Shown: piece after piece, positions 20,995 through 39,943 of the stretch
Position numbering within the stretch: position 1 is the stretch's first letter
Layout: every line of letters begins with the position of its first letter
From: Candidatus Peribacteraceae bacterium
Lineage (GTDB): Bacteria; Patescibacteriota; Gracilibacteria; Peribacterales; Peribacteraceae
Direction: 5' to 3'
DNA length: 64,000 bases
Assembly (NCBI GenBank): GCA_028711345.1
Contig: JAQTSK010000001.1
Location: 11,961 to 75,960 of the forward strand
Position numbers and translations under genes: made by a program
The notes under the pieces: model-generated
The model's database searches: none
The model's input: only the letters and a program-made list of their open reading frames with translations
Told to the model about the DNA's origin: nothing

Positions 20995-21180
20995 TCAAGC
21001 GCCCCAGATCTTTTCGATGATGTCTGGATTTTCCTTTACCTGGTATGCATATTTACGTACGTAGTCTCCAAGCGTAGCTTCGGGCGCTCTCTGTTCAATC
21101 GTCCGTATGAGCGTAGAAAAATCCCGGGCAGTGAAGTGGTAGTGGAATATTCTGATGTTCTTCTTTCGTCCGTTAACCAA
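20995..21180 (-). CDS. Possible ribbon-helix-helix (MobC/CopG-like) small protein
   Basis: A beta-strand-like IRIFHYHFT is followed by two short helices ending LGDYVRKYAY. Weak call. Confidence 0.25.
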   Translation of the reverse strand: MVNGRKKNIRIFHYHFTARDFSTLIRTIEQRAPEATLGDYVRKYAYQVKENPDIIEKIWGA

Positions 21181-21229
21181 TCCGCTGATATGGAGAAAAG
21201 TACCTCTTTCGGGTGCCCCGATGCCGTTG

Positions 21230-21238
21230 TGTTACACT
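21230..21238 (+). promoter_or_regulatory. Extended -10 (TGTTACACT), 6 nt upstream of the ppc ATG
   Basis: TGtTACACT-ctccgc-ATG(21245). Confidence 0.45.
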
Positions 21239-21244
21239 CTCCGC

Positions 21245-25614: not shown

Positions 25615-26244
25615 TTATTGAATACATGCTCCCTGTGAACATCCCTGTGGACATAGGTAGCCTGTATTGATTCCTCTGACACATGAATTCTCGATGAGCA
25701 CGCTCTCGATACATTGATCAGTTTGAGTTGTCTTTCTTACAATGGAAATAGCGTTCTCGGAGTTGCCGATGTTTTTGAAATTAATGTTGTTCACAAGGAC
25801 AGTCACTGGAATATCAATGAGTAGACTTCCATTCGAGTTTTCCGGTTTAAGATAATAGACCTGATCGGGTTCGGAAAATGCATATTCCTTTCCAACGATA
25901 ACCTCTTTCGTTTCTATCCCCATTCTCATCATTGCTTTTTCCTTTGAGAGAATCTGAACGATCGTTCCTTCCTTGAGCACGATAGGTTCGGCAAGATCAA
26001 CACTTCCTTGCACAAAGTAATCGTCGCCATTGTCAGAATCCTTACAAGCAATTTGCTCCTGGACTTCATTTATCATACGTGCACTCTGTCGTGTAGGGTT
26101 ATTGCGCGTAGGAATGGTGGCAGATGGTGTATTTCGTTCTGCCGTTACTGCGTGTTGGGTCTTGTTCTGTTCGCATGCCATGAGACTGATGGTGCAAATT
26201 GCTACGAGGAAGATATTAGTAAAGGAAGTCGAGTAGTGGTTCAT
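25615..26244 (-). CDS. Putative lipoprotein, AT-rich gene
   Basis: Signal peptide with lipobox SLMAC. No other motif recognised. Confidence 0.4.
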   Translation of the reverse strand: MNHYSTSFTNIFLVAICTISLMACEQNKTQHAVTAERNTPSATIPTRNNPTRQSARMINEVQEQIACKDSDNGDDYFVQGSVDLAEPIVLKEGTIVQILSKEKAMMRMGIETKEVIVGKEYAFSEPDQVYYLKPENSNGSLLIDIPVTVLVNNINFKNIGNSENAISIVRKTTQTDQCIESVLIENSCVRGINTGYLCPQGCSQGACIQ

Positions 26245-26335: not shown

Positions 26336-28027
26336 TCAGTACACCTCCTTCAGGTAACACTCCTCACACACCACTTTCTCCGTTCTCTCGGGAGCGCAGG
26401 TTGTTGAGATCTCCTTTTGGCATATGGCGCATGATCTATGCCACAGCTTCCGCGGATTCCGAAGCGCCAATCGTCGATCGTACCGTTCATCCGGATGGAG
26501 ATGGGGGATCGGTAGTCGCTGACGGCGGTAAAACTCCAGTTCCTGCTTCACGATCCGGAACGGTCTTTTGGTCGCTTCGCAGACCACTGCCCAATTCAGA
26601 ACATCATCCGGGATTTGTTCAATGGCGTCCGGAAGATCCGATGCATCGATTGTCTTCGTAACATTCGGTTTCTTATCCGTGACAGTTCGCCAGTAGAAGC
26701 CGCGTTCTTTGGCTTCTGTTTCGGTTAACGGCAGATATTCCTGAGCGAGTGTTTCGTTGTAGCCGAAGGGGGAGAGTGTTGAGGGGAAGAACCGTCCGAA
26801 TTCTTTCGCGGATTGCATGTGCTCAATAATCTTCGGCATCAATTCTTCGTATTCTTTCTTGGTGTGCTGCTTATTCAGGATGCAGTATTTCTTTTGGCGC
26901 AGACCGGAACATCCGAAACAGTCGCTGCAGCTGAAGCAGTATTCGCAGTAGAGCAGATTCTGGCTATGGAAGACGTAGAGACAGTACGCAACATTGTAGG
27001 TTTCGATGGTGCCGAGTGTTTCGAAGGCCAGCTCCGGCTTCAGGTACATATTCGAACAGTCGTACACGTCTTTCACGTTCACGCCGACGGTGACGTATCT
27101 GGAATCCTGACTCTCGTTCACGTCGTAGCATTCGGTACAGCGTTGCGAGTTTTCAATGAAGTCGCCGGTGCAGTCCTCGCTGTTCACGATGTGCACTGCG
27201 CGATGGATCATTGATTTCCGAAGTTCTGCAAGTTTCTGTTTCATTTCTTCCATCTTCGTGTGCGAGCCACGGAATTCTTCGATTTTCTGTAGATACTCTT
27301 CCTTGGGCAGCGGCTTGTTTCCGAAGTGGTACTGCTTTTTGTGGAGATTGGAGCACAGGCAGCAATCGCTGCAGCCGATCAGGTCGGTCGAGAACAGGCA
27401 GTCGCGGCAGTTCTTGGAGAAGGAGACCGATGTGCAGTTGTACGAATCGTAGACGGAGAAGCAGTCGTAACAGAGCTCACTGCCGTACAGGAGTGAGCAA
27501 TCGACCGAGCTTCGGCAACTCTGGTACAGCTTGCCGTACAGGCAGTCCTCGTCGTACTCGGACGAATTGATGAGGTAGCAGTTCTTGGAATACGCGGTTC
27601 CCGCCGTGAAATCGCAATTATCGTTCGCCAGAAGCATCATGCCCATGCGCGGAGAGGCTTTGTGCAGATTTGCAAACTGGTCGAAGAACGGGCGCGAGAA
27701 GTCGTACGCTCTTCCCTGTCCCATTCCGTCTCGCTTGTGATCATTCCAATCTTCCGGTGTGAAGACGATGTCCGACTCTCCCCAGAGCGGCTCCTCGTGG
27801 TAGATGGATACCATTTCCTTCCCATTCGCCACTTTTCGCTTGTAGAACGCACGCTCGTTGCGGTGGCAGGTTCGGATCCGAAGCCGGCATTCCGGACAGA
27901 AGACCGGTAGCGGGGGATTGATTGATTCTTTCCCGAAGGTGAAGGTCATTTTCTTCAGGAATGTTTCTTCATCGGGGGTGATTTCGAAGGATTGATGGCA
28001 GTGGGGGTTGGCGCAGGTCTTGAGCAT
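26336..28027 (-). CDS. Cysteine-rich zinc-ribbon repeat protein, paralogue A (uncharacterised family)
   Basis: Collinear with 28143-, 30911-, 32742- and 35452- copies. Starts MLKTCANPHC and ends VVCEECYLKEVY. The start is set at the ATG homologous to the other copies; TATACT lies 7 nt upstream. Confidence 0.85.
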   Translation of the reverse strand: MLKTCANPHCHQSFEITPDEETFLKKMTFTFGKESINPPLPVFCPECRLRIRTCHRNERAFYKRKVANGKEMVSIYHEEPLWGESDIVFTPEDWNDHKRDGMGQGRAYDFSRPFFDQFANLHKASPRMGMMLLANDNCDFTAGTAYSKNCYLINSSEYDEDCLYGKLYQSCRSSVDCSLLYGSELCYDCFSVYDSYNCTSVSFSKNCRDCLFSTDLIGCSDCCLCSNLHKKQYHFGNKPLPKEEYLQKIEEFRGSHTKMEEMKQKLAELRKSMIHRAVHIVNSEDCTGDFIENSQRCTECYDVNESQDSRYVTVGVNVKDVYDCSNMYLKPELAFETLGTIETYNVAYCLYVFHSQNLLYCEYCFSCSDCFGCSGLRQKKYCILNKQHTKKEYEELMPKIIEHMQSAKEFGRFFPSTLSPFGYNETLAQEYLPLTETEAKERGFYWRTVTDKKPNVTKTIDASDLPDAIEQIPDDVLNWAVVCEATKRPFRIVKQELEFYRRQRLPIPHLHPDERYDRRLALRNPRKLWHRSCAICQKEISTTCAPERTEKVVCEECYLKEVY

Positions 28028-28072
28028 CCGGAGAAGTATAGAGTATGAAGTATTGTGTATGGTCCAAAATTT

Positions 28073-28136
28073 CCGTAGCTGGGGCATCGTGCCCCAGTGA
28101 CATGACATTACACGGGCACGATGCCCGTGCTGCGGG
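28073..28136. terminator. Double GC-rich hairpin (GGGGCATCGTGCCCC / CGGGCACGATGCCCG) downstream of paralogue B
   Basis: Two perfect short palindromes around a CGAT/ATCG core. Related to hairpins at 30855-30875 and 32686-32706. Confidence 0.5.
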
Positions 28137-28142
28137 AACAAT

Positions 28143-29792
28143 TCAATACACTTCCTTCAAATAGCACTCCTCGCAGTAAATCTTCTCCGGCTTCGAAGGT
28201 TCGTATGAGCTCTCCAGCTCTTTTCCACACTTCATGCATTCTCTCTTCCACAATTGACGCGGATTCCTCCGCCGGATGCGTCCAACGTGGCGTTCATCGA
28301 AGCAGAGGCGCGGCAGAGGCAGGTTGTGTTCGCGGTAGAGCGCCAGTTCCTGCGGGATGATCTTGAAGGGCTTGCCCGTCTTGGCACATGTCAGGATCTT
28401 TTGCACGATGTCATCCGGCACGTCCCTGATGTCGTCCGGTGTCCGGGAGTTCGGCCCTTGGTAGGCGGAAGTTTGGCTGTCCGTGTCTTCTTTCCATTTC
28501 CACCCGCGCTTCTCCGCCTCCTTCTGCGTGAGCGGGAAGTACTCCTGTGCAACGGTCTCGTTATAGCCGAAGGGTGAAAGGGACGGTGGCAGGGGTAGCC
28601 CCCATTCACCGGACTTCTTCATGTGCGAGACGATCTTCGCCTTGAGCTTCTCGTACTCTTCCTTGGAGTATTGTTTATTCAGGATGCAGTAGCGCTTCTT
28701 CTTCAGTCCCGAGCAGGCGAAGCAGTCCTCGCAGTACTGGCAGTGATCCAGATACTGGCTGTTCTTGGAGTAGAAGCTCACGAACGTAAATTGCGTGTTG
28801 TACTGGCCGATCGTTGAGATGGTGCCGTAGGTGCGTTCGCAGTGGTCCACGACGACGTGACCGTCCCAGCAGTCCTTGGACTTGAAGCTGAAGATCAGAT
28901 AGCCGCAGTCCTCCAGATCGCCCGAGTCGTAGCATTCGGTGCAGTTCCTGCAGTTGACGATGTGGTCGCCCGTGACGTTCTCGTTGCCGTTACCGTCGTA
29001 GTACTGGTGGATCTGCTGTGCACCGGCTCTCGTCCGGAATGCCGAAGTCGCCGCGTCCAATGCGCCCAGATTGCCGGTATTCAGTTCCTTGAGTTTCTGT
29101 CTAAAGTCCTCTTTGGAGTGCGGCTCGTTGAAGATGTGGAATTCCTTATTCCGGAGACCGAAGCACCCGAAGCAGTCGGCGCAGCCCTTGCAGTCACTCA
29201 GGAAGAAACTGTCGCGGCAGTTGTGGCTGCGCTCGGAGAAGGCGAGGTTGTAGGATTCCGAACAGTCGATGCATTCCATTAAGAGTGTGCTCTTGAAGCA
29301 GTTCAGGCACTCGATGCACGACGTGCAGCTGTCGATGCCGTAGGAGTAGTAGCACTCTTCGTTGTGGTCCGAGACGAAGATCATGTAGCAGTTCTTGTCC
29401 TGCTGCGCGCCGTTGGTAAAGTCACTGTTGACGTTCTGGGACGTGAAGACCGAGATCTTCGGTGTGGCCAGCATCAGTTCATTGAACTGTTCGAAGAACG
29501 GACGGTTGAAATTATAGTCCCGTCCCTGCTCCTGCCCGTCCCACTTGTCGGTGTGCCACTCGTGCTGGTCGTAGACTTTATACGGACTGTCCGGCGAATA
29601 CACCGAGATGATCTGCTTGCCGGTGAGGTCGCACTTGCGGTGGTAAAGCTTGCGTTCGTTGCGCCAGGCGAACCGTTGCTGCCTGCGGCAGGTGGGGCAC
29701 AGAGAGGGCAGAGGCATGTCGATGCCTTTCAGGAATTCTTTCTCAGCGGGCTGAACGGTGAATGCCGATTGGCAGTGAGTGCAGGGGGGCAT
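28143..29792 (-). CDS. Cysteine-rich zinc-ribbon repeat protein, paralogue B
   Basis: Starts MPPCTHCQSAF and ends IYCEECYLKEVY. The 46-codon upstream extension in the ORF track has no counterpart in the other copies. Confidence 0.8.
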   Translation of the reverse strand: MPPCTHCQSAFTVQPAEKEFLKGIDMPLPSLCPTCRRQQRFAWRNERKLYHRKCDLTGKQIISVYSPDSPYKVYDQHEWHTDKWDGQEQGRDYNFNRPFFEQFNELMLATPKISVFTSQNVNSDFTNGAQQDKNCYMIFVSDHNEECYYSYGIDSCTSCIECLNCFKSTLLMECIDCSESYNLAFSERSHNCRDSFFLSDCKGCADCFGCFGLRNKEFHIFNEPHSKEDFRQKLKELNTGNLGALDAATSAFRTRAGAQQIHQYYDGNGNENVTGDHIVNCRNCTECYDSGDLEDCGYLIFSFKSKDCWDGHVVVDHCERTYGTISTIGQYNTQFTFVSFYSKNSQYLDHCQYCEDCFACSGLKKKRYCILNKQYSKEEYEKLKAKIVSHMKKSGEWGLPLPPSLSPFGYNETVAQEYFPLTQKEAEKRGWKWKEDTDSQTSAYQGPNSRTPDDIRDVPDDIVQKILTCAKTGKPFKIIPQELALYREHNLPLPRLCFDERHVGRIRRRNPRQLWKRECMKCGKELESSYEPSKPEKIYCEECYLKEVY

Positions 29793-29909
29793 GGGAGTGG
29801 GCAGTGAAGTAGAAGAAGGTAAGAAGCAAGGAGAGCGGGTCTGCTGCCTCGCAGTCAATACACGATGTGTCGTGCAGTAGTGGCAGGCCGGACGCAATTG
29901 TATTGACAG

Positions 29910-29931
29910 AATGTTACAAATCAATAACATT
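29910..29931. promoter_or_regulatory. 7-bp perfect inverted repeat AATGTTA-N8-TAACATT overlapping a TTGACA-N16-TAACAT promoter-like pair
   Basis: Seen directly in sequence. Lies between paralogue B and the TrmB-like gene. Candidate operator. Confidence 0.3.
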
Positions 29932-30025
29932 GCAATTATCAGCTAGGATTACGAATTTCATATATTGCTTTAAATAAGCTGAAATATTAGATTCTTGTTT
30001 ACTGTAGTAATTTCATTACAACACT

Positions 30026-30787
30026 ATGATTACCACCGAATTACAGGGACTTGGTCTCTCTTCCGAGGAAGCGAAAGTCTATTACGCACTCCTGCAACTT
30101 GGCGGCTCGTATGTCAGCGCTATCGCAAAAAAAGCGGACGTGCACCGCGTGGTCTGTTACAAAATTCTCGACGAGCTGGTCGAGCGAGGATTGGTCAGCA
30201 GTTTTACCAAGGACAACGTCAAACATTTCGCCGTGGAGAGCCCGAAAATTCTCGTCCAGAAGCAGCAGGAGAAGCTGACCAAGGCGCAGAAGCTCCTGCC
30301 GGAGCTCCTTTCCATCACCAACGCGCTCGCGTACAAGCCGAAAATCCAGTACTACGAGGGGCTGGAGGGGATGAAGAACATTTTCGAGGACACGCTGACG
30401 GCGACCGGTGAGATGCTCGGCTACACGAATCTGGAGGACATACCGAAAGTATTTCCGAAGGAGTATCTGAAGGAATGGGCTGTTCGTAAAGTTGCGAGGA
30501 ATCTCAAGACGCGGATGCTCTCACCGCACACGCCGGCTGCGCTCAGGTATTTGAAGACGTACTATCCGAAGGGGTTCGATCCGAATCTGGTGGAGATTCT
30601 CTTCGTGAATCCTCGGGAGTTCCACTTCGAGTACGAGATCACCATCTATGGGGACAAAGTCGCCATTCTTTCGCTGAACCCGGACGAGCGCATGGGACTG
30701 ATCATCGAGAGTCCGATCTACGCCAAAACGCAGCGCGCGGCGTTCCAACTGGCGTGGCTCGGCGCTACTTCATTTATTGCAAAGTGA
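30026..30787 (+). CDS. TrmB-family (winged-helix) transcriptional regulator
   Basis: N-terminal LGLSSEEAKVYYALLQLGGSYVSAIAKKADVHRVVCYKILDELVERGLV is typical of the TrmB HTH. Confidence 0.6.
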   Translation: MITTELQGLGLSSEEAKVYYALLQLGGSYVSAIAKKADVHRVVCYKILDELVERGLVSSFTKDNVKHFAVESPKILVQKQQEKLTKAQKLLPELLSITNALAYKPKIQYYEGLEGMKNIFEDTLTATGEMLGYTNLEDIPKVFPKEYLKEWAVRKVARNLKTRMLSPHTPAALRYLKTYYPKGFDPNLVEILFVNPREFHFEYEITIYGDKVAILSLNPDERMGLIIESPIYAKTQRAAFQLAWLGATSFIAK

Positions 30788-30817
30788 GGGAAGTAGTTGC
30801 GCGAGCCTTTGGTGAGC

Positions 30818-30902
30818 GGTCAGGCGAATGTCGCGTTCGCCGGTACTTCAGCTGCGCAGGCACGATGCCTGCGTGACCGCTTGCCCGAGGCGCGCGTTAC
30901 GA
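30818..30902. repeat. ~85-bp triple-hairpin 3' flank of paralogue C, duplicated at 32649-32732
   Basis: ggcgaatgtcgcgttcgcc ... gcgcaggcacgatgcctgcgtgaccgcttgcccgaggcgcgcgttacg is almost identical to the flank of paralogue D. Confidence 0.8.
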
Positions 30903-30910
30903 TTTGTGGA

Positions 30911-32587
30911 TCAGTACACTTCCTTCAGATAGCAGGATTCACAGTACACAATTTCGGGTCTTTCCGGCGAGTATGTTGTCTCCATCTCCTTCCCGCATTT
31001 CCCACAATTCCTCTTCCACAGCTTCCGCGGATTCCGGAGCGCCATCCTCCGCCGATGACGTTCGTCGGGATGGAAGCGGGGGACGGGCACATGCATTTGA
31101 CGGTAGAAGTCCAATTCCTGCTTGATGATCCGGAATGGCCTCTTCGTCGCGTCGCATTCGATGGCCCAGTTCAGGATGTCGTCGGGAATCTGATCGATGC
31201 GATCAGGAAGTTGTGCCGCGGGAATGATGTGATCAACATTGGGGATCTCGTCAGTTTGTACTCTCCAGTGCCATCCGCGGGTTTCGACGTCATGTTGTGT
31301 CAGAGGAAAATCTTCCTGAGCGATGCTGAGGTTATAGGGGAAGAACGAAGAGTGTGCAGAGAGGAATTCGCCCCATTCGTTCGTTTTTCTCATGTGTCCG
31401 ATAATCCGTGGTACTAGTTCTTCATATTCGGCTTTCATATACTGTTTGTTGAGTACGCAGTACTGCTTGTGACGCAGGCCGACACATCCGAAGCAATGCT
31501 TGCAGGAGAAACATTCTTCCGAGTAGAGCATGTCATCGTCATCCCAGACGTAGAGTGAGAACAGGCAGCGGTTTGCCCTGACTCCGCTCAGACATTCGTA
31601 GAGCAGCTCCGCATTCGGACAGTAGTGCGCGTCACGGCAATCCTTCGCTCCTTGCGGAACCGGCACCATGAAGGAGCAGTCTTCCAGATTGATTGCATCA
31701 TACGAATTTACCGTATTCCGGCAATTGCGCAGATGATCCCCCGTGCAGTTCTCGCATTGGACCAGATGGGAGGCTCGCGTCGTCAGTGTTCGAGCGTAGG
31801 AACGGAAATTCTCTTCGGTTCGCAACAGTTCCGAGTGATTTCTGAGTGCCGTCTTCAGAGCTTCAACCTGTTCTCCGGTTGATGGTGCATTGTTGATCCA
31901 GTGACTTTTGTTGACCAGATTTTTGCAGCCGATGCAGTCATTGCACCCGCGGCAATCATCACAGAACAGCAACCCGCTTCCCGTATCGCAGTCTTTGCAG
32001 TGTTGGCAGGAATTCAGTCCGTGGCAATGAATGCACTCGTAGCAGAGTTCGCAGCCTGTGACGCGGTAGCAATCGCAGCAATCGCGGGAATCATTTGCCT
32101 GATAACAATGCAGGGAGTTTTCGTTGACGACGCAGGATGTGCAGAGGTAGCAGTGTTTCGTGAAGGCGCAGAACGAGCAGTAGGCGCTTCCCTCGTCATT
32201 TGTGTCGATCGTCCCCAGGCGAGGCACCGTTGTTCGGAGAGATTGGAATTGAGAGAAGAAATCTTCCGATTCACTGAAGGAACGGCCGAATGTCAGAGGA
32301 TCCCAGTTCTCCCCCCACCAACTTTCTTTGTCATAGACTGTACAGGGACTATCCGGCGGATAGATAGTAATGAGCGGACGTCCGGACAGTGCACAGTGCC
32401 TCCTGTACAGGTGTCGTTCATTCCTGTGGGAAAATCTCCTCTGCATTCTGCAGCCTGGACACAATGTCGGTGGTGGAACCAATTCTCTCCTCTCTTTGAA
32501 TACCGGACTCACTTTTTCGTAGAATTCCAGATCGGTATCGGAGATCTCGAAGTGCTGACGGCACCAAGCGTTGAGACAGGTCGGCAT
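30911..32587 (-). CDS. Cysteine-rich zinc-ribbon repeat protein, paralogue C
   Basis: Starts MPTCLNAWCRQHFEIS and ends IVYCESCYLKEVY. I count 45 Cys in 558 aa. Confidence 0.85.
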   Translation of the reverse strand: MPTCLNAWCRQHFEISDTDLEFYEKVSPVFKERRELVPPPTLCPGCRMQRRFSHRNERHLYRRHCALSGRPLITIYPPDSPCTVYDKESWWGENWDPLTFGRSFSESEDFFSQFQSLRTTVPRLGTIDTNDEGSAYCSFCAFTKHCYLCTSCVVNENSLHCYQANDSRDCCDCYRVTGCELCYECIHCHGLNSCQHCKDCDTGSGLLFCDDCRGCNDCIGCKNLVNKSHWINNAPSTGEQVEALKTALRNHSELLRTEENFRSYARTLTTRASHLVQCENCTGDHLRNCRNTVNSYDAINLEDCSFMVPVPQGAKDCRDAHYCPNAELLYECLSGVRANRCLFSLYVWDDDDMLYSEECFSCKHCFGCVGLRHKQYCVLNKQYMKAEYEELVPRIIGHMRKTNEWGEFLSAHSSFFPYNLSIAQEDFPLTQHDVETRGWHWRVQTDEIPNVDHIIPAAQLPDRIDQIPDDILNWAIECDATKRPFRIIKQELDFYRQMHVPVPRFHPDERHRRRMALRNPRKLWKRNCGKCGKEMETTYSPERPEIVYCESCYLKEVY

Positions 32588-32593
32588 GTGAAA

Positions 32594-32602
32594 AGTGTAT
32601 CA
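32594..32602 (-). promoter_or_regulatory. Extended -10 TGATACACT, 6 nt upstream of the paralogue C ATG
   Basis: Minus strand reads TGATACACT-tttcac-ATG(32587). Confidence 0.45.
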
Positions 32603-32648
32603 GAGGAGGTACCGAAAGAACTGATGTGGCGCACCGCCTCCGGCGTGC

Positions 32649-32732
32649 GGTCGGGCGAACGTCGCGTTCGCCGGCTTCGCACCTGCGCAGGCACGATGCC
32701 TGCGTGACCGCTTGCCCGAGGCGCGCGTTACG
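32649..32732. repeat. Second copy of the triple-hairpin 3' flank (downstream of paralogue D)
   Basis: See 30818-30902. Confidence 0.8.
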
Positions 32733-32741
32733 GCATACGGG

Positions 32742-34436
32742 TTAGTACACTTCCTTCAAATAGCACTCCTCACAATAGACGATCTCGGGACGATCGGGTG
32801 CGTAGCTTGTCGCCATCGATTTGTGACACTTCGCACATTCTCTCTTCCACAGCTTCCGCGGATTTCGGAGCGCCATCCTCCGCCGATGACGTTCGTCGGG
32901 ATGCAGGCGGGGGACGGGCACATGCATTTGTCGGTAGAAGTGCAATTCCTGTTTCATGATTCGAAATGGCCTCTTCGTCGCGTCGCATTCGATTGCCCAG
33001 TTCAGGATGTCGTCCGGGATTTGGTCGATGGAATCCGGCAGTTGATTCGCCGGGATGATTCTGTCGACTTTGGGGATTTCATCCGATTCGTCTTTCCATT
33101 TCCATGCTCGCTTCAATACCTCTTCTTTCGTGAGCGGGAAATACTCCTGCGCGACGGTCTCGTTATAAGGAAAGGGAGACATGGAGAGAGGGAAGTACTG
33201 CCCCCACTCCTTCGTACTTCTCATGTGCTCGACGATCTTCGGAATCAAGGTTTCATACTCATCTTTCGAATACTGCTTGTTCAGGATGCAGTAGTTTCCG
33301 CTGCGGAATCCGGCGCAGCCGAAACAGTTCTTCGTCTGGTGGCACTGGAGGCAGTAGAGGAGATCTGCGCAGCTGCTGACGCAGTCGAAGCAGAAGTGTA
33401 TGCCCGCGGAGCCGTGTCCGATGGTACCGCTGTTACTGACACGTTCGATGCCCTCGCCGAACGAGGAAACATCCATGCAGTCTTTCGCGCGGTAGACCGA
33501 GTCGCAGTAGCGCAGATCCTGCGCTTCCCCGATGTTGAAGCAGGTGCTGCACCGCTGCGCGTTCGTGATGTAGTCGCCGGAAGAATCTTCTGCCTGCACG
33601 ACGGCGCAGAACTTGCGGGGATAGGCGAGCGAGAATTGATGGAAGCGCTCCATGAGGTCATCCATCGTCGATTCATCCATGAGTTGTTTGAGCCGTCGTG
33701 TGTAGTCGTCCTTCGTTAGCTGTTCATTCCACAGGCAGTATTTCTTACTTACCAGATTGCAGCTGAAGGCGCAGTCACTGCAGCCGGTGCAACTCAAGAG
33801 GAAGATCCCCGTATTGCAGTTTCCGCAGCGCTGGCAATGGTCAAGGGCATAGCAATCCGTGCAGTCCACACATTCGTGGCAGAGCTGCGAACCGGACACG
33901 TACGAACAGTCGATACAGTCTTTCGAGTGCTTGATGACGTTGGAGTAGCTGCAGTCCTCGTTGTAATCCGAATCGAAGATGAGGTAGCTGTTTTTGTTCC
34001 ATCCTGCGAAGTTCACGTACTCGCTGTTCATCTTCTTCATATCGGAGGTGCCCACGTTCTGGAGCCTCGGCACCTTGATGCACAGCTCGGCAAGTTGTTC
34101 GAAGAAGGGGCGTGAGAAATCGATGTCCCTTCCGAAGTCACGCGCATCCCACTTGTCCGACCACCAGCCGGCTGTGGAATAGACGGGGAAGGGAGCACCG
34201 GCCGGATACATCGAGATGATGGTCTCTCCGGTCAGATCACATGTGCGTTTGTGCAACTTGCGCTCGTTGCGGAAGGAGAGCCTCTGCTGTTGTCGGCAGT
34301 CGGGACAGTGGTCCGGCGGAGGAATGGGAATCGTCTTCCCCGCTATGACAGGGGAGATCTTTTCACTGAACTCACGATCGTCCTCTGTGATCTCGAAGGG
34401 CTGACGGCACCAGGGGTTGGCACAAGTCTTGAGCAT
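32742..34436 (-). CDS. Cysteine-rich zinc-ribbon repeat protein, paralogue D
   Basis: Starts MLKTCANPWCRQPFEIT and ends IVYCEECYLKEVY. Confidence 0.85.
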   Translation of the reverse strand: MLKTCANPWCRQPFEITEDDREFSEKISPVIAGKTIPIPPPDHCPDCRQQQRLSFRNERKLHKRTCDLTGETIISMYPAGAPFPVYSTAGWWSDKWDARDFGRDIDFSRPFFEQLAELCIKVPRLQNVGTSDMKKMNSEYVNFAGWNKNSYLIFDSDYNEDCSYSNVIKHSKDCIDCSYVSGSQLCHECVDCTDCYALDHCQRCGNCNTGIFLLSCTGCSDCAFSCNLVSKKYCLWNEQLTKDDYTRRLKQLMDESTMDDLMERFHQFSLAYPRKFCAVVQAEDSSGDYITNAQRCSTCFNIGEAQDLRYCDSVYRAKDCMDVSSFGEGIERVSNSGTIGHGSAGIHFCFDCVSSCADLLYCLQCHQTKNCFGCAGFRSGNYCILNKQYSKDEYETLIPKIVEHMRSTKEWGQYFPLSMSPFPYNETVAQEYFPLTKEEVLKRAWKWKDESDEIPKVDRIIPANQLPDSIDQIPDDILNWAIECDATKRPFRIMKQELHFYRQMHVPVPRLHPDERHRRRMALRNPRKLWKRECAKCHKSMATSYAPDRPEIVYCEECYLKEVY

Positions 34437-34442
34437 GCAGAA

Positions 34443-34451
34443 AGTGTATCA
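34443..34451 (-). promoter_or_regulatory. Extended -10 TGATACACT, 6 nt upstream of the paralogue D ATG and 2 nt after the STAS-like gene stop
   Basis: Minus strand reads TAG-cg-TGATACACT-ttctgc-ATG(34436). Confidence 0.45.
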
Positions 34452-34453
34452 CG

Positions 34454-34765
34454 CTACTCCATAAGCACCTTCTCCCCCCACTCCTCCCTTAGGAACGCGA
34501 GCGTCTTGCGGACGGTGATGTTGTCCTGCGTGTGGATGAGCCGCACGTGACCCCCATGCGCCTCGGCGATCGATGTGATGAACTCGTCGGCAAAGGACGG
34601 AGTCAGTACTTCCACACCTGCAAAATCAATCACGATATCTCTGAATTCTCCGCTGATAACGTCCACTTGGGCAATCGGAATTCTGCTGATGATCGCGAGA
34701 TATGCCTCACGCCCGGCAGGACGTGAATCCAGAATCGTGCCGACTTTGCGCATTTCAATGGTCAT
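34454..34765 (-). CDS. STAS-like domain protein (DUF4325-type)
   Basis: IVIDFAGVEVLTPSFADEFI core. The start is set at the ATG forming an ATGA overlap with the upstream ATPase stop. The longer 221-aa ORF is rejected. Confidence 0.55.
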   Translation of the reverse strand: MTIEMRKVGTILDSRPAGREAYLAIISRIPIAQVDVISGEFRDIVIDFAGVEVLTPSFADEFITSIAEAHGGHVRLIHTQDNITVRKTLAFLREEWGEKVLME

Positions 34766-35361
34766 GACGCTTTCCATGATACGACTGCGATGCATCCCGG
34801 TACAGCATTCGTTACGTTGGACCACAGTTCCTGCTTCTTCATCACCGCATACCGCGCATTGCCCGATTGGAATGCGAGATTCAATCCGTCCTCCAGCAAG
34901 ACGCTGCGAACGAACTTCAGTCCGTTGCCCCTGCGTTCCGGTGCTCTCCCCGAGAGACGTTCGAGGAAGGCAACGTGCAGCGCATCTTCGTCGGAATGGA
35001 GTGCGGGGCGTACCTGCCTGAGGGTTTGCAGAATTCCCTGACCGCGGTCGGCGATCACGATTGAACATGTCCCCGGTTTGCATTGCCACGAAAAGAGAAT
35101 TCCGGGCAGATCCTTCCATGCGCCGATGTTGTGATCAAATGCGTTGTTGCCGATCTCCCCGAGAACTGCGTGCAGGAGGAACGATTGATCGGCGGTCATG
35201 CCTGCACGGATCGCCTCGCTTCGACAGTGATCTATTCTTCCGGTGAAAACGTCACGTGTGGGACAGTATTGTTCCGCCATCGGTTCTGTGGCCGCCTGCG
35301 ATGAGGCCCATGCGAACGCACCTTGCAACAGTGGATCGTCGGCGAATGTCGGCTCGTTCAT
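34762..35361 (-). CDS. GHKL-superfamily (histidine-kinase-like / RsbW-SpoIIAB-like) ATPase
   Basis: N box GEIGNNAFDH, G1 box ADRGQGI and G2-like RRGNGLKF. First ATG is at 35361; the track start at 35367 is TTG. Confidence 0.55.
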   Translation of the reverse strand: MNEPTFADDPLLQGAFAWASSQAATEPMAEQYCPTRDVFTGRIDHCRSEAIRAGMTADQSFLLHAVLGEIGNNAFDHNIGAWKDLPGILFSWQCKPGTCSIVIADRGQGILQTLRQVRPALHSDEDALHVAFLERLSGRAPERRGNGLKFVRSVLLEDGLNLAFQSGNARYAVMKKQELWSNVTNAVPGCIAVVSWKAS

Positions 35362-35363
35362 GC

Positions 35364-35423
35364 TCAATATACTTCACGCAAATAGCATTCTTCACAATAG
35401 ACAATCTCCGGTCGTTCGGGAGA
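35364..35423 (-). pseudogene. Fossil 3' end (last 19 codons + TGA) of a sixth cysteine-rich paralogue
   Basis: Minus strand translates SPERPEIVYCEECYLREVY*, the family C-terminal signature. No upstream body is present. Confidence 0.7.
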
Positions 35424-35451
35424 ACCTGCCCCTCCGTAGCGACCCCCTTGG

Positions 35452-37134
35452 TTAATAAACGGTAGCCAGATAACACGGTTCACAATAGACAACTTCTGGT
35501 CGCGAAGGGGGGTAACTGGTGTTGATCATCTTTCCGCACTTCCCGCATTTCCTACTCCACAGCTTCCTCGGCGTCTGCAGTTCAAAGCGCTCCTTCTGCC
35601 GTTGTTCGAAGCACTTGTCCGGCACCGGTACGACCATAGAGCGGTAGAAGCTCAGTTCCTGCGGAATGATCTTGTACTTCTTGCCTGTGATGCTGCACGG
35701 GAAAATCTCTTCACAGAGATCATCTCTGACTTCTCTGATGTCATCCGGCAGGGGAGTCGACAGTGTTGATCGTTCCTTCGTATCCTCATCCAACCATCTC
35801 CAGCCATTTTCCAATGCTTCATCCCGATTTAACGGAACATAGTCCTGCGCATTCGTCTCGTTGTAGGCGAAAGGCGAGAGGTCGGTCGGGATGAATTCGC
35901 CATACTCTTCTTCCTGCCTCATCCGTTCAATAATTTTCGGAACAAGCTCGTTATATTCTTTTTCGGTGTATTGCTTATTCAGGATGCAGAATTTTTTATA
36001 CCGGAGGCCGCAGCAACCGAAGCAGTCCGATGAATTGAGGCACTGGTTGCAGCAGATCAGATTTGCATTGCTGTCCCAGCACTCATTGCTGAAGAGCACA
36101 TTCCGGCAGTTGTAGCCGCAGTTGATGGTTTCGTAGATCAGTTCGCAGCCGCGTCCCCACGATGCGTAATCCATGCAGTCTTTGGCTTGTACGAGTGACT
36201 GGACGTAGCGGCAGTCCTCACTCTCACGAACCTCGAATGCATCGAGGACATTTTTGCAGTGGTCGATGTAGTTCCCCCGAACGTTTTCATTATTCATCCC
36301 CATATACTCCCGCACGATCATATTTCTCTTAAGTTCTGAGAAACGTTTTTTGAGGAGTCCAACGGTCGATCGAATGTAGAGTGTTGTTCCCGCGAGCTGC
36401 GATCGATACTCCTCTTCCGAATATTGCTTGTTGTCGATACAGAACCGCTTCTGCGTCAGATTAGTGCAGAACATGCAGTCATTGCAGCCGGTGCAGCCTT
36501 TCAGGAATGCAGAGCTGCTGCAGTTCTTGCAGGATTCCACCCAGCGGCAGTCGTAGCATTCGTAGGAGTCCACGCATTCGTAGCAGCGTTCACTTTTGTG
36601 CGTATTCAGACAATCCACGCAATTGCGGCAGTTGGTCAGGTGGACGGAGTAGTAGCAGTCTTCGCTGAAGTTGGACGTGAAGATCATGTAGCAGTTTTTG
36701 TCATTGCTCGCTCGGTTGCAGTAGTCCGCGTTCTCCATGTTGGCCTGCTGGATCAGGGACATCTTCGGCACGATTTTCATCAACTCGCCAAACTGCGGCC
36801 AGAACGGACGGGAGAGATCGACTGACCGGCCATAGGACAGCGGATCCCAACCGTCACCGAACCACGCGTCCTTGGAATACACGACGTACGGGCTATCCTC
36901 GGGGTACATCGAAATCATGTCTCTGTGCGTCAGATCGCAGGTCCGCTTGTAAAGCGAGCGTTCGTTCCTGAATGCCAGCCTCCGCTGCATCCGACATTGC
37001 GGGCAGAGGGTGGGAGGCGGAATGAGCTCTTTCTTCTCATTGAAGGCCGGGCTGACTTTGTCGTAAAACTGCAGGTCGGCATCGGTGATGTCGAAGGACT
37101 GGCGGCACCAAGCATTTGCACAGGACTTTTGCAC
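35452..37134 (-). CDS. Cysteine-rich zinc-ribbon repeat protein, paralogue E
   Basis: GTG start gives MQKSCANAWCRQSFDIT. Ends VVYCEPCYLATVY. Confidence 0.85.
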   Translation of the reverse strand: MQKSCANAWCRQSFDITDADLQFYDKVSPAFNEKKELIPPPTLCPQCRMQRRLAFRNERSLYKRTCDLTHRDMISMYPEDSPYVVYSKDAWFGDGWDPLSYGRSVDLSRPFWPQFGELMKIVPKMSLIQQANMENADYCNRASNDKNCYMIFTSNFSEDCYYSVHLTNCRNCVDCLNTHKSERCYECVDSYECYDCRWVESCKNCSSSAFLKGCTGCNDCMFCTNLTQKRFCIDNKQYSEEEYRSQLAGTTLYIRSTVGLLKKRFSELKRNMIVREYMGMNNENVRGNYIDHCKNVLDAFEVRESEDCRYVQSLVQAKDCMDYASWGRGCELIYETINCGYNCRNVLFSNECWDSNANLICCNQCLNSSDCFGCCGLRYKKFCILNKQYTEKEYNELVPKIIERMRQEEEYGEFIPTDLSPFAYNETNAQDYVPLNRDEALENGWRWLDEDTKERSTLSTPLPDDIREVRDDLCEEIFPCSITGKKYKIIPQELSFYRSMVVPVPDKCFEQRQKERFELQTPRKLWSRKCGKCGKMINTSYPPSRPEVVYCEPCYLATVY

Positions 37135-37140
37135 ATCAGG

Positions 37141-37149
37141 ATTGTAACA
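37141..37149 (-). promoter_or_regulatory. Extended -10 TGTTACAAT, 6 nt upstream of the paralogue E GTG start
   Basis: Minus strand reads TGTTACAAT-cctgat-GTG(37134). Confidence 0.45.
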
Positions 37150-37500: not shown

Positions 37501-38901
37501 CTATTCACCAAAAATCATCCTCTTGAACTCTTCCGGAATGCAGTGCTCCGCGCTCGGCTTCAGCGTCTTTTCGATCAGCGTCTCCGGATCGAGCAATGTC
37601 TTGCGAATTTCCGTCTGGAACATCTTCATGACGGGAGAATCATTGAAATCACCTCGCTTTTCAGCAAGGAGAAATGCGGCTTTCGTTTCTTCCGGTGAGC
37701 CCACGCACTCGAACGGCTTGAACTTTTCGATGCCGAGGAGCTCGCGGTAGAGCGGCAGGAGGTCGGTGTTATCGAACAGATTCTTGCCGAACATCTTCAC
37801 CAATCGATCCTTTGAGATGAATGCGGAGAGGATTGCGAAGACGAACGCGCATTTCGGACAGGTGCCGCACCAGCCCCCACCCCCGACCCCTCCCCCGGGC
37901 CCCGCTGCGGCGTTGCTGCCGGGGGAGGGGAGTTTTTTCAATTTCCAATTTTTGTTGCAGCTCGTCACGCGATCGAAGTACTGCGGATACTGCGAGAAAA
38001 TTTCTGCGATCTTGAGTTCCGAGAATGGCCGGAGTGCGCTGAAGTACTGAATGTCCGTGCCGATGCATTCTTTCAGGTACCGTCGGAAAGCCTTTTCAAA
38101 TTCCAGCCCCTTGCTCCATTGATGATTAATTTCGAGCCCCTTCCAGACCAGATTGCCTTCGCTCGCACTTCGCTCGGCACTGATCGCCACTGCATCGAAG
38201 TCATACAGCTGCGCGATGAGGACCGACAAGATTGAAAGGTATGCGGTGATGGGAACGTGGCCGTTGAGCGCGCCATCGGCGTTGAGGTCGAAGAGGTTGC
38301 CGGAGAGCAAGCGTTTGACGTTGAACAGCGGCAGACCGGATGCGTGCGCCAGTTCATCGATGATCGGATGTGAGCCTCCCATTCGCAGCAGCGTCACGTT
38401 GGACGCCGATTTCTTGAGCAGCTCGAGAGTCACCATGGAATCTTTCCCTCCGCCGATCGGAACCAAGACGCGCGGCTGCGCCGGAATTCTCGGTTGGTAG
38501 TTCGGCGGCTTGGCAGTCAGCGGCTTGCGCTTATCATCCACTGGGAAATTGACCAACCCTCTGAAATCGATTTCATTTTCGTAGAAGAACTGACCGAGAC
38601 CATTCTGGTAGACCGAGTTCCAGAAGTTCCCTTCCTGCCGTGTCAGTTTGCCGCTGCCCATGTGCATGGTCTTGGGCAGGCAGGTCTTGTAGTAGCTGAT
38701 GCCGCCGATGATGTGCAGCGCCAAGAGCGTCCGCTCGATCATGCCGGACCGTTCCTCCAGATGCTTGGTGAGCGGTTCGTCAGGCAGGATCAACGTTTCT
38801 TCGAACGAGATGGCGTTGTCCAGTGCATACCGCAGTACAACCTTTTTGCTGTGCGGGATCCAGTTGTAGCCGGAGAAGTGGAAGACAGAGTAGGGCTTCA
38901 T
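37501..38901 (-). CDS. PP-loop (adenine-nucleotide alpha-hydrolase superfamily) ATPase, possibly MurL-like epimerase
   Basis: PP-loop-like VLVPIGGGKDSMV and a downstream WCGTCPKCAFVF Cys motif, ~466 aa. The MurL assignment is from memory and unverified. Confidence 0.35.
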   Translation of the reverse strand: MKPYSVFHFSGYNWIPHSKKVVLRYALDNAISFEETLILPDEPLTKHLEERSGMIERTLLALHIIGGISYYKTCLPKTMHMGSGKLTRQEGNFWNSVYQNGLGQFFYENEIDFRGLVNFPVDDKRKPLTAKPPNYQPRIPAQPRVLVPIGGGKDSMVTLELLKKSASNVTLLRMGGSHPIIDELAHASGLPLFNVKRLLSGNLFDLNADGALNGHVPITAYLSILSVLIAQLYDFDAVAISAERSASEGNLVWKGLEINHQWSKGLEFEKAFRRYLKECIGTDIQYFSALRPFSELKIAEIFSQYPQYFDRVTSCNKNWKLKKLPSPGSNAAAGPGGGVGGGGWCGTCPKCAFVFAILSAFISKDRLVKMFGKNLFDNTDLLPLYRELLGIEKFKPFECVGSPEETKAAFLLAEKRGDFNDSPVMKMFQTEIRKTLLDPETLIEKTLKPSAEHCIPEEFKRMIFGE

Positions 38902-38915
38902 GCGGATTCTATTGA

Positions 38916-39845
38916 TTATTTGCGGTCATTAGGTAAAATGTCTTTTGGTACAGCGGGTGTCGCCTCGATAGACGATGACCCGTCTGTTTCCTTTGTCTTG
39001 GGAACAAATAGCTTAACACGGAATCGCTTATCTTTTGATTCATAATGTTTCAACGATGATAACCTGACATTTTTCTTGATTCCGAGTGCTTCTTTCACGA
39101 AATTCAGTAGATCCATTTTGATTGATTGGGTTTTCGAGAGTGTATTTTCGTTAATGTAACCTTTTGCAATTTTTGCATCGAAGACACTGCACCCTATCAA
39201 TATATCTACGAGTTGCAGGCAATCATTCCATTTCGAACTGATTTGGCAGACCCCCGTAAGGGCAAGACGCTTGAAATGATCATTCACTATTGCCCTGACT
39301 CCTCCTTCGAATGATTCACCTTCTCCATTGTCGAAAAGTGAATCTGTGGGTGTGAAGTAATCATCAGAAAGAACTGTCAGTACTTCCACTTCGCTGATGT
39401 TCTTCTTGATGAGCTCGACCAAGAACTTCTTGTATAACTGGAAAATGTCTCCATTGAAATACTTGTCCAAATCGAATGATGGATCTGTTTTTGGAATGAT
39501 AATTGCGCTGAAGTTGGAACCTCTATTTTGTGTAGCTACTTTTAGAAACTCTCTGGCTATTTTGAGTGTCACAAATGATAGTTTGTTGAATTTTATCTCT
39601 TCGTAAAAATTATATCTGCTTCGAATTCTCCGGAGTTCACGATAGAGAAGTGATGGACGATGAACTTTGAACATTCCGATACCGAAGAACGGATCATCCT
39701 TTCTGCTCAATGCACCTGATTCATCAATGAATGCGAACGGTGTGCGAATTTGTCGATAGTTAAGCAGAGAGAAAAATTTCAACTGAATGAGTTCTTCTTT
39801 GGAAAGTTTTGCCGGTTCGTTTGACGAAGGTAATGTTGTGGTCAT
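38916..39845 (-). CDS. DUF3800-domain protein (AT-rich gene)
   Basis: N-terminal FAFIDESG motif characteristic of DUF3800. It starts 13 nt after the tRNA-Leu 3' end. Confidence 0.5.
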   Translation of the reverse strand: MTTTLPSSNEPAKLSKEELIQLKFFSLLNYRQIRTPFAFIDESGALSRKDDPFFGIGMFKVHRPSLLYRELRRIRSRYNFYEEIKFNKLSFVTLKIAREFLKVATQNRGSNFSAIIIPKTDPSFDLDKYFNGDIFQLYKKFLVELIKKNISEVEVLTVLSDDYFTPTDSLFDNGEGESFEGGVRAIVNDHFKRLALTGVCQISSKWNDCLQLVDILIGCSVFDAKIAKGYINENTLSKTQSIKMDLLNFVKEALGIKKNVRLSSLKHYESKDKRFRVKLFVPKTKETDGSSSIEATPAVPKDILPNDRK

Positions 39846-39858
39846 ACTAGTAAGTGAT

Positions 39859-39943
39859 TGGTGCCGAAGGAGGGACTCGAACCCTCACACCTTGCGGTAC
39901 ACGATTTTGAGTCGTGCGCGTCTACCAGTTCCGCCACTTCGGC
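39859..39943 (-). tRNA. tRNA-Leu (CAA)
   Basis: GCCGAAG/CTTCGGC acceptor, loop CTCAAAA, long variable arm, CCA encoded. Confidence 0.85.

Follow-up and report, generated by a model that had tools for sequence, protein, structure and literature searches.

A 64,000-nt stretch of contig JAQTSK010000001.1 (assembly GCA_028711345.1, Candidatus Peribacteraceae bacterium), termed the window below, carries five neighbouring genes for proteins of 549-564 residues in which cysteine makes up 6.4-8.1% of the sequence. What are these proteins, and what purpose might five of them serve side by side? Comparison with homologues shows that they are old paralogues, within Patescibacteria, of an undescribed, lineage-specific and soluble family that is apparently cytoplasmic. 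Moreover, as judged from gene order in related genomes, the family belongs to a conserved three-part module composed of a divergent TrmB-like regulator, a run of N copies and a soluble VirD4/TraG-like ATPase downstream. The window holds the regulator and the copies of this module, not the ATPase.

Five old paralogues of an undescribed family

A first-pass annotation of this DNA listed five same-strand open reading frames (ORFs), all of which were recovered on the minus strand:

26336..28027, minus strand: c1, 563 residues, 36 cysteines; distinct subfamily without Cys65
28143..29792, minus strand: c2, 549 residues, 35 cysteines; divergent to the TrmB-like gene
30911..32587, minus strand: c3, 558 residues, 45 cysteines; reference for residue numbering
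32742..34436, minus strand: c4, 564 residues, 39 cysteines
35452..37134, minus strand: c5, 560 residues, 43 cysteines; GTG start

The five copies align end to end, with 39-43% identity of c2-c5 to c1, and the DNA repeats within the array are 60-82% identical. The array spans 16.9% of the window, matching the earlier estimate of about 17%, and the five genes alone account for 13.1%. The very high cysteine content reported for these proteins is borne out by 35-45 cysteines per copy, and a recount of the 558-residue copy gave exactly the 45 claimed. In agreement with the reported lack of a signal peptide or transmembrane (TM) segment, no 19-residue segment of any copy reaches 1.6 on the Kyte-Doolittle scale. 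We infer that the family is cytoplasmic. The C-terminal motif quoted in the annotation is present, as is the N-terminal one, except that c2 has C-x2-C instead of C-x3/4-C; the single copy said to have no cysteine after the RNER..R module is c1.

A survey of 81 related loci (numbered with the prefix L) plus the window, taking in 10-kb flanks and including many loci cut by contig ends, comprises 297 family ORFs, 291 of them on one strand, arranged in same-strand arrays with as many as nine copies in 21 kb. Counterparts 77% identical to c2 occupy the equivalent position in L009 and L039. Those of c1 share 64% identity in L039, where the c1 counterpart follows the c2 counterpart, and 54-56% in L053, L079 and L049.

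The family is large. A search at E<=1e-3 yielded 2,231 homologues, for which every name given by the source is 'hypothetical protein'. A profile search of 1.84 billion representative proteins at the same threshold gave 5,905 clusters (50% identity), including 2,449 with an E below 1e-30; the best 150 are almost all full length, and the best relatives bear names such as Candidatus Peregrinibacteria and Peribacteraceae. Genomes in GTDB, scanned at one per species, hold at least 584 loci, and the 80 matches listed are labelled Peregrinibacteria, Peribacteria, Gracilibacteria, Abawacabacteria or plain Patescibacteria, apart from one Micrarchaeota-labelled record. At least two arrays of four to six copies each are present in the complete 1.36-Mb genome CP060226.1. 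The cysteine count varies from 29 to 46 across family members, and the conservation of cysteine positions among homologues, on which the functional reading of the first-pass annotation depended, was confirmed.

No full-length family match was found in Pfam, NCBIfam, PADLOC or a PDB sequence search, which return terminal fingers only. Using the full-length structural model, Foldseek found nothing in PDB and only small zinc-ribbon proteins in BFVD, and the PADLOC defence-protein models match neither c2 nor c3. A literature search on PF13451, PF23477 and TIGR04272 found no paper, and no description of the family, its central module or the gene module was found in the searchable literature, including Peregrinibacteria papers. 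The earlier statement that no named family fits therefore stands: sequence and fold searches of Pfam, NCBIfam and PDB match the terminal fingers only, and give no full-length match to a characterised family. We rate the array family, on its sequence, as new in kind, with only its terminal fingers falling in known, themselves uncharacterised families. It should be added that expanded uncharacterised families are common in these genomes.

A phage origin was rejected, as the family is essentially absent from the phage and viral collections searched: 50,697 phage records gave no tblastn match, and IMG/VR one partial match at a contig end.

Terminal double zinc-finger units

From N- to C-terminus, each protein consists of a double finger, a predicted 12-residue Cys-ladder β-solenoid present twice, an acidic conserved domain and a second double finger. 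In c3 these parts are located as follows:

32303-32587, minus strand: N-terminal double finger, residues 1-95
31892-32206, minus strand: predicted solenoid module M1, residues 128-232
31448-31762, minus strand: predicted solenoid module M2, residues 276-380
31178-31447, minus strand: acidic conserved domain, residues 381-470
30914-31177, minus strand: C-terminal double finger, residues 471-558

Each end is a basic double treble-clef unit, in which a zf_Tbcl-type finger precedes a CxxC-x17-CxxC finger. The cysteines of the N-terminal unit are C4, C9, C43 and C46, followed by C65, C68, C86 and C89, and those of the C-terminal unit are C478, C481, C506 and C509, followed by C528, C531, C549 and C552. 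Profile-profile comparison aligned residues 3-91 with residues 477-554 (99.8%, E 4e-28).

Co-occurrence of cysteines was analysed in 206 full-length copies. The quartet of the first N-terminal finger is complete (state 1111) in 182 of them and that of the last C-terminal finger, C528-x2-C531-x17-C549-x2-C552, in 202, each including all five copies of the window. The two inner fingers are complete in 44 and 41 copies, respectively, so that one finger of each unit is degenerate in most copies and all four are kept in only 11. The second N-terminal finger occurs almost only in the states 1111, 1000 or 0000; the first C-terminal finger (478/481/506/509) also shows a partial 1010 state, in 42 copies. 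Finger cysteines thus appear to be kept or lost as all-or-none quartets, as a Zn(Cys)4 site predicts, and this quartet-wise loss fits Zn(Cys)4 sites in the terminal fingers. Zinc binding is probably restricted to these fingers, perhaps with the addition of the last coil of each solenoid.

Matches to known families fall at the two ends. The homologue P0067 matches PF13451 at residues 3-40 with 27.1 bits (gathering cut-off 24 bits), and five of 59 members match this family at E<=1; in the window only c2 does so, at 17.3 bits, below the cut-off. PF23477 matches the C-terminal end of 47 of the 59 members. It gives 19.5-25.4 bits on the full-length window copies, compared to a cut-off of 27 bits, with no match in c1 and c5, and 27.7 bits on the isolated C-terminus of c3. 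TIGR04272 reaches 15.5-20.1 bits against a cut-off of 36 bits. Altogether, the Pfam and NCBIfam models cover the last ~35 residues and, in some members, the first ~40, and PDB sequence searches gave LIM-like matches to the last finger only.

The ends resemble zf_Tbcl and zf_Tbcl_2 in their patterns, C..C-x33-CPxCR and CxxC-x17-CxxC, and in the placement of the model matches, which fall where expected; in addition, 85-aa proteins of Patescibacteria are exactly such a pair. However, the two models cover ~85 of 560 residues and are themselves families of unknown function, and in most array-family copies one finger per pair lacks its cysteines.

Shorter relatives were also noticed. Stand-alone double-finger proteins of 85-86 residues (P0308 and P0379) and a 163-residue 'mini' member without the two central modules (P0374) occur in Patescibacteria, and suggest how the 560-residue architecture was assembled from an 85-residue unit. 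Moreover, dozens of proteins of 156-160 residues (P0344, P0398, P0297 and others) comprise only the C-terminal ~160 residues of the family, beginning at Met399, which is nearly invariant, or close to it; some are encoded on contigs of 16-20 kb. Such proteins might be fragments produced by gene calling or truncated pseudogenes, or might indicate a C-terminal isoform made from an internal start.

Central modules as predicted β-solenoids

Residues 125-250 (M1) align with residues 270-400 (M2) in profile-profile comparison (99.9%). In M1 the cysteines stand strictly at every third residue over ~90 residues, with an autocorrelation of 0.77 at lag 3. The full profile has, even with cysteines ignored, a super-period of 12 residues with autocorrelation peaks at lags 12 and 24. 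Residues C/S/L/A/V occupy the cysteine phase, D/N/Y/G the one before it and Y/E/K/R/V the third. Structure prediction by AlphaFold2 gave a full-length model with a pLDDT of 83 and a pTM of 0.88; a model of the centre only (pLDDT 79) shows long uninterrupted strand runs with bridges at every third residue. The weak Foldseek matches of this centre-only model are all β-solenoids (pentapeptide-repeat, pectate-lyase-like, RP2 and ice-binding proteins), and the M1 profile hits a TET3 CXXC finger (E 0.017), TBCC (0.6) and the Tenebrio antifreeze helix (1.3). The most informative evidence is co-occurrence in the 206 copies: single ladder cysteines give way to Ser, Leu, Val, Ile or Ala, CxxC neighbours in the ladder show almost no correlation (phi -0.1 to 0.3), and cysteine presence is coupled most strongly at i,i+12 (phi 0.33-0.47). 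Since they are singly replaced and coupled at i,i+12, we read the central cysteines as a solenoid core ladder: the modules are most likely narrow β-solenoids of 12 residues per coil, as the models predict, with cysteines mainly forming the ladder in the core.

Three observations count against this assignment. The Foldseek matches of the centre are non-significant (E >=0.16, TM <=0.15); the pLDDT of 60-70 in the centre of the full-length model gives moderate confidence for a solenoid; and cysteine is 94-95% conserved at positions 215 and 218, where a metal site is possible. The last M1 coil, C212-x2-C215-x2-C218-x2-C221, is complete in 112 of the 206 copies, and a metal site may reside in this best-conserved coil. 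The multi-Zn or Fe-S scaffold suggested in the first-pass annotation is accordingly likely for the terminal fingers but not for the central cysteines, in view of their single replacement and i,i+12 coupling; joint conservation occurs only in the terminal fingers, and the solenoid cysteines are not jointly conserved in the manner of metallothionein or Fe-S clusters.

A known protein with this period is the antifreeze protein TmAFP of Tenebrio molitor (PDB 1EZG), which is secreted and has cysteines six residues apart, intra-coil disulfides and a TCT ice-binding face. Both have a 12-residue period and Cys/Ser-type small residues in a narrow core, a likeness that was non-significant in the M1 profile search. 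Compared to TmAFP, the array family has a cysteine at every third residue, coupled at i+12 and interchangeable with Leu or Val, and it possesses zinc fingers and lacks a signal peptide and a TCT face. The best, though weak, structural neighbours of the solenoid are pentapeptide-repeat proteins (6fls, 2xt4 and 2w7z) and RP2, and the sequence profile found TBCC. Like Qnr, MfpA and AlbG, to which it may be compared, the array-family solenoid is acidic. Nevertheless, its period is 3/12 instead of 5/20 and it has no A(D/N)LXX motif; family scans gave no pentapeptide match in Pfam, and the Foldseek match has an E of 0.16 and a TM of 0.09.

Two further searches concern M1. Its profile matches phrog_15341 (5e-8), a family without assigned function that offers a phage-side lead, and a word-indexed protein database returned 15 short proteins only, mostly fragments.

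Charge and conservation along the protein

The mean net charge is +5 and +7 for the finger units, and -6, -6 and -7 for M1, M2 and the domain of residues 381-470. Family-wide, conservation is highest at the ends and in the 381-470 domain and lowest in the solenoids. This order depends on distance. In pairs of at least 55% overall identity M1 is the best-conserved region (68-83%), whereas in pairs at 35-55% M1 and M2 drop to 35-40% and the acidic domain and the C-terminal unit stay at 48-60%. Between c2 and its 77% identical counterparts, identity is 82% in M1, 89-90% in M2 and 73-76% in the ends. As each subfamily has its own, preserved solenoid sequence, we read the solenoids as probable specificity modules on a common chassis rather than parts of a hypervariable family.

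A hypervariable family engaged in an arms race was rejected, because the solenoids are best conserved among close relatives. The 'diversifying' recognition family considered in the first-pass annotation fares no better: the paralogues are old, with counterparts of c2 and c1 standing in the same order in L039 at 77% and 64% identity, and the conservation of the variable solenoids between close relatives argues for fixed specialisation, not ongoing diversification.

A regulator and an ATPase accompany the arrays

Besides family copies, only TrmB-like and VirD4-like genes recur in the surveyed loci, and all other genes occur in at most six. A synteny survey proposed in the first-pass annotation thus gave relatives of the TrmB-like gene in 38 of the 82 loci, of a VirD4-like gene in 22, and of a GHKL/DUF4325 pair in the window only. 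The regulator of the window and its candidate operators are located as follows:

30026..30787, plus strand: TrmB-like regulator, 253 residues, with an N-terminal TrmB helix-turn-helix (HTH)
30003..30020, no strand assigned: TGTA-N10-TACA palindrome, 5 nt before the regulator ATG; candidate operator
29854-29862, minus strand, and 29899-29907, plus strand: two inverted TGTATTGAC motifs between the TrmB-like gene and c2

Residues 6-62 of the regulator match PF01978 (TrmB HTH) with 49.8 bits (cut-off 25.6). Its C-terminal ~170 residues have no match, and the sugar-binding domain of archaeal TrmB was not found, residues ~130-253 being without any match; full-length TrmB equivalog models reach only 12.8-25.1 bits against cut-offs of 500-650 bits, and a PDB search matched the HTH alone. 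Among 48 such genes, 40 lie on the opposite strand to the array; 31 stand in direct divergent orientation to a family copy, and several such pairs occur in some arrays. In the window the gene faces c2, and in the closest genomes, whose regulator is 79-81% identical, it faces the c2 counterpart. The first-pass annotation had taken the TrmB-like gene and the GHKL/STAS-like pair as interruptions of the array. This holds for the pair, which is foreign, but not for the TrmB-like gene, a conserved divergent partner that, by its recurrence, appears to be part of the array system.

The TGTA-N10-TACA palindrome occurs only once in the window, and is found at the equivalent place in L009, L039, L040 and L053. 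The TGTATTGAC motif is likewise present nowhere else in the window; other genomes retain it ahead of the c2-type copy, where a -35-like TTGAC overlaps with it. The TrmB-like protein probably controls itself and the neighbouring c2-type copy. In L039, an inserted ORF of ~150 residues separates the TrmB-like gene from the c2 counterpart (9649-10265 of that locus). As this ORF lies directly behind the conserved promoter-like element TTGACT-N16-TAGGAT, the element drives a different first gene there.

The VirD4/TraG-like P-loop ATPase, a link found in related genomes only and thus outside the view of the first-pass annotation, has 744-791 residues. Of 23 such genes, 20 are on the array strand and 18 adjoin a family copy, usually 10-180 bp downstream of the last one. 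The protein matches PF02534 (41.7 bits, cut-off 20.1) and PF10412 (31.8 bits, cut-off 20.5). It shows no TM anchor, as no hydrophobic segment exceeds 1.6, and its N-terminal ~330 residues form a separate soluble domain, DUF8128. Distant relatives occur in Bacillus phages G and SPO1, and a PDB search with the ATPase gave no match.

At the place where related genomes carry the VirD4-like ATPase, the window has a gene for a 209-residue protein (25615-26244, after c1) whose N-terminus (…SLMAC) is lipoprotein-like and whose short C-terminus, CVRGINTGYLCPQGCSQGACIQ, is rich in cysteine; no family match was found for this protein, and a Mur-ligase (MurD-like) gene comes next. A VirB4/TraC-like P-loop ATPase is encoded at 1027-2973 (TraG P-loop domain, 8e-25), 23 kb from the array.

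Other genes appear sporadically in the related arrays. PemK, RelE, HEPN/nucleotidyltransferase and HepT toxin-antitoxin pairs were seen in L003, L002, L007, L053, L077 and L078, together with AAA_14/DUF4143 ATPase and ORF6N-domain genes, the last amounting to 11 ORFs, each on the opposite strand, in four loci. These are small modules that look selfish, and the arrays seem to be tolerant of insertions or to attract them.

Promoter-like and intergenic elements

As the first-pass annotation had noted, a -10 box lies 6-7 nt before the start codon in four of the five copies:

28035..28040, minus strand: -10-like TATACT, 7 nt before the c1 ATG
32594..32602, minus strand: extended -10-like TGATACACT, 6 nt before the c3 ATG
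34443..34451, minus strand: extended -10-like TGATACACT, 6 nt before the c4 ATG
37141..37149, minus strand: extended -10-like TGTTACAAT, 6 nt before the c5 GTG

The three extended boxes carry a TG. Among copies from other genomes, 75 of 167 have a TAnnnT that ends 5-10 nt before the ATG, most often at -7; this is 45%, compared to ~17% as a rough chance expectation from base composition. The last 12 nt before the start are G-poor in these copies, which thus lack a Shine-Dalgarno sequence. The frequency of -10 boxes next to start codons, above chance, supports separate, probably leaderless transcription. The individual copies are therefore probably transcribed one by one, and the earlier suggestion of independent expression gains support from the same 75 copies.

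The GC-rich hairpins reported after three copies are present as well:

28073..28135, minus strand: GC-rich hairpin after c2, -39 kcal/mol over 106 nt folded, z -3.7
30815..30881, minus strand: GC-rich hairpins after c3, z about -1.4; intergenic element common with c4
32647..32711, minus strand: GC-rich hairpins after c4, z about -1.4; second copy of the element

Such hairpins are absent after c1 and c5. As the hairpins lack a U tract and a consensus scan found fewer sites than in shuffled sequences, canonical intrinsic terminators were rejected. The regions 3' of c3 (30805-30910) and c4 (32636-32741) have in common a GC-rich element of ~100 nt, and are 82% identical over 300 nt including the gene ends. 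This element consists of two perfect 8-9-bp hairpins around a GGCATCGTGCC core, with related hairpins after c2, and may stem from recent gene conversion or represent a small repeat. As a genome-wide repeat GGCATCGTGCC was rejected: it has five matches, four of them in the intergenic hairpins of the array, which is not above chance. Rfam gave no match in the array, and its four matches in the window are all tRNA genes.

A lost sixth copy and an inserted gene pair

Between the c5 stop codon and the start of a GHKL-type gene lies the remnant of a further copy:

35367..35423, minus strand: fossil C-terminus of a lost sixth copy, SPERPEIVYCEECYLREVY; stop codon at 35364-35366
34762..35361, minus strand: GHKL-type ATPase-like gene; HATPase_c_2 at E 0.003, below cut-off, and phrog_3364 at 2e-12
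34454..34777, minus strand: STAS-like DUF4325 gene, 34 bits, above cut-off; overlaps the end of the GHKL gene

The 'fossil sixth' copy claimed in the first-pass annotation proved real: it comprises 19 codons, matches the c4 C-terminus with 84% identity by tblastn, and ends 3 nt before the GHKL ATG. The region 34454-35423 looks like an insertion of the GHKL/DUF4325 pair that replaced most of the sixth copy. A role of the pair as a system component was rejected, since no homologue was found in any of the 81 other loci. As it has no relative there and adjoins the fossil, we treat the pair as a probable local insertion outside the conserved module.

Proposed function and its alternatives

Our preferred reading, which we put forward tentatively as possible rather than probable, is that the copies of the array form a panel of adaptors for the VirD4-like ATPase, or of its clients, each specific for its own target. 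The basic ends and the acidic domain, shared by all copies, would serve a function common to them all, binding nucleic acid and/or docking on the ATPase. Because the solenoid surfaces differ between paralogues and are kept in close relatives, that of each copy would recognise its own target. The promoters would give leaderless transcripts, so that copies are expressed individually, and the TrmB-like protein would act through the TGTA-N10-TACA and TGTATTGAC sites on itself and the c2-type copy. A bolder form of the proposal is unlikely; in it the arrays would be the client or effector repertoire of orphan soluble VirD4-like ATPases of Peregrinibacteria, and each paralogue would recognise a different host or cellular target through a fold not seen before, a four-sided 12-residue Cys-ladder β-solenoid with treble-clef fingers as caps, the conserved ends docking on the ATPase. 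Several points weaken the adaptor proposal: the window has no VirD4-like ATPase; this gene was seen in only 22 of the 82 loci, many of which are cut; c2 has no recognisable -10 box in the window; and VirD4 homologues are common in Patescibacteria, at about two per genome (PMC12102498).

Alternatively, the proteins might be translocated effectors of a type IV secretion system (T4SS), the ATPase recognising the conserved C-terminal ~180 residues, delivery being into the host cell of this presumably epibiotic bacterium and each solenoid having its own target there. The closest analogy is with Bartonella, where bep effector genes stand in tandem next to virD4, and with the XVIPCD effectors of Xanthomonas. 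Like these, the array family consists of same-strand paralogues by a VirD4-like gene, in many genomes ending 10-180 bp before it, with a conserved C-terminal part and a variable, paralogue-specific body. Zinc fingers would fit action within a target cytoplasm, and the window encodes the VirB4/TraC-like ATPase at 1027-2973. Moreover, T4SS genes occur widely among Patescibacteria, and in one Saccharimonadia strain they proved essential for growth as an epibiont (PMC12102498). However, the array-associated ATPase is soluble, without a membrane anchor and mostly unlinked to virB4-type channel genes, and its homologues occur in Bacillus phages G and SPO1, which secrete no effectors. According to a 2025 survey, Patescibacteria encode 5,713 VirD4 homologues, which lie mostly at a great distance from virB4 and may be exapted, and the one type IV coupling protein (T4CP) homologue tested in Patescibacteria was not essential, for which its authors suggest exaptation (PMC12102498). 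Instead of a positively charged tail, the last ~30 residues of the family are a folded CxxC-x17-CxxC finger ending in KEVY; Pfam scans of the family showed neither a BID nor an XVIPCD domain, zinc-loaded Cys-rich solenoids would need unfolding for transport, and the array of the window has no adjacent ATPase. An effector role, though appealing for its likeness to the bep arrays, is unlikely.

Other explanations start from the biochemistry of the proteins. Quite unlikely is a nucleic-acid-directed role, with the basic fingers as DNA- or RNA-binding parts and the acidic solenoids as spacers or as DNA mimics of the pentapeptide-repeat kind; possible tasks would be the protection or processing of DNA handled by the VirD4-like translocase, or anti-restriction. 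Arg-rich finger helices, a charge of +5/+7 at the ends compared to about -19 in the body, pentapeptide-repeat proteins as the top and several other weak Foldseek matches, a partner ATPase from the DNA-translocase superfamily and the stand-alone 85-residue double-finger proteins of Patescibacteria all favour it. By contrast, no match to any characterised DNA- or RNA-binding domain was found, the last finger has its nearest relatives of solved structure among the protein-binding LIM domains, and a generic DNA mimic would not need five to nine specialised paralogues. Metal handling, in which ~40 cysteines would bind many Zn, Fe or Fe-S centres for storage, buffering or electron transfer, fits the cysteine share of 6.4-8.1% with its many CxxC pairs, the classical Zn(Cys)4 quartets at the ends, the coil C212-x2-C215-x2-C218-x2-C221 complete in 112 of 206 copies and the weak similarity of M1 to the TET3 CXXC finger (E 0.017). 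We nevertheless regard it as improbable. Ladder cysteines are exchanged singly and CxxC partners are almost uncorrelated, whereas finger sites are lost as quartets; cysteine counts range from 29 to 46 between members; the family has neither a ferredoxin-type CxxCxxCxxxCP motif nor a conserved His; and storage explains neither the conserved, paralogue-specific surfaces nor the regulator nor the ATPase partner. Finally, disulfide-rich secreted or surface structural proteins would recall the insect antifreeze β-helix or the Cys-rich exported proteins of Peribacteria. The 12-residue period with stacked cysteine positions, the TmAFP profile match (non-significant, E 1.3) and a DsbA/thioredoxin-like gene after the array of L001 point this way. 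Peribacteria are known for such proteins: those of Candidatus Peribacter have 580-3,860 residues and 56-238 cysteines, and most have a predicted signal peptide (Anantharaman et al. 2016, PMC4736985). Despite the common lineage and the unusually high cysteine content, the array proteins, of ~560 residues with 29-46 cysteines, are not in that published set (PMC4736985). Signal peptides and TM segments are missing from all copies, the terminal zinc fingers speak for a reducing compartment, and the DsbA-like neighbour is not recurrent, which makes this explanation extremely improbable.

Other features bordering the array

A tRNA-Leu(CAA) gene (39859-39943, minus strand) lies directly upstream of a DUF3800 gene in the region 38916-39943; the DUF3800 gene matches the PADLOC candidate defence model PDC-M04A (1e-14) and is followed by a 466-residue protein without a family match (37501-38901). 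The region might represent a small tRNA-associated island at the edge of the array. In addition, a phosphoenolpyruvate carboxylase of archaeal type (PEPcase_2, 1e-129) is encoded at 21155-22777, a few kb from the array.

Implications

If our reading is correct, the order of regulator, array and ATPase would provide a testable set of partners for orphan VirD4-like genes (PMC12102498). The client-repertoire form, if true, would explain what the exapted coupling proteins of Patescibacteria do, and the family would constitute a new class of modular recognition proteins. The central modules may represent a new type of β-solenoid, with 12 residues per coil and a cysteine ladder, of interest to structural biologists and protein designers. 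Should the contrast between quartet-wise finger loss and a singly replaceable ladder hold, a high cysteine count alone would not imply metal clusters. The genomes of Patescibacteria (candidate phyla radiation, CPR) are very small, yet a visible share is spent on this family. Altogether, a large family of specialised paralogues under purifying selection, equipped with its own regulator, is probably central to the lifestyle of these presumed symbionts.

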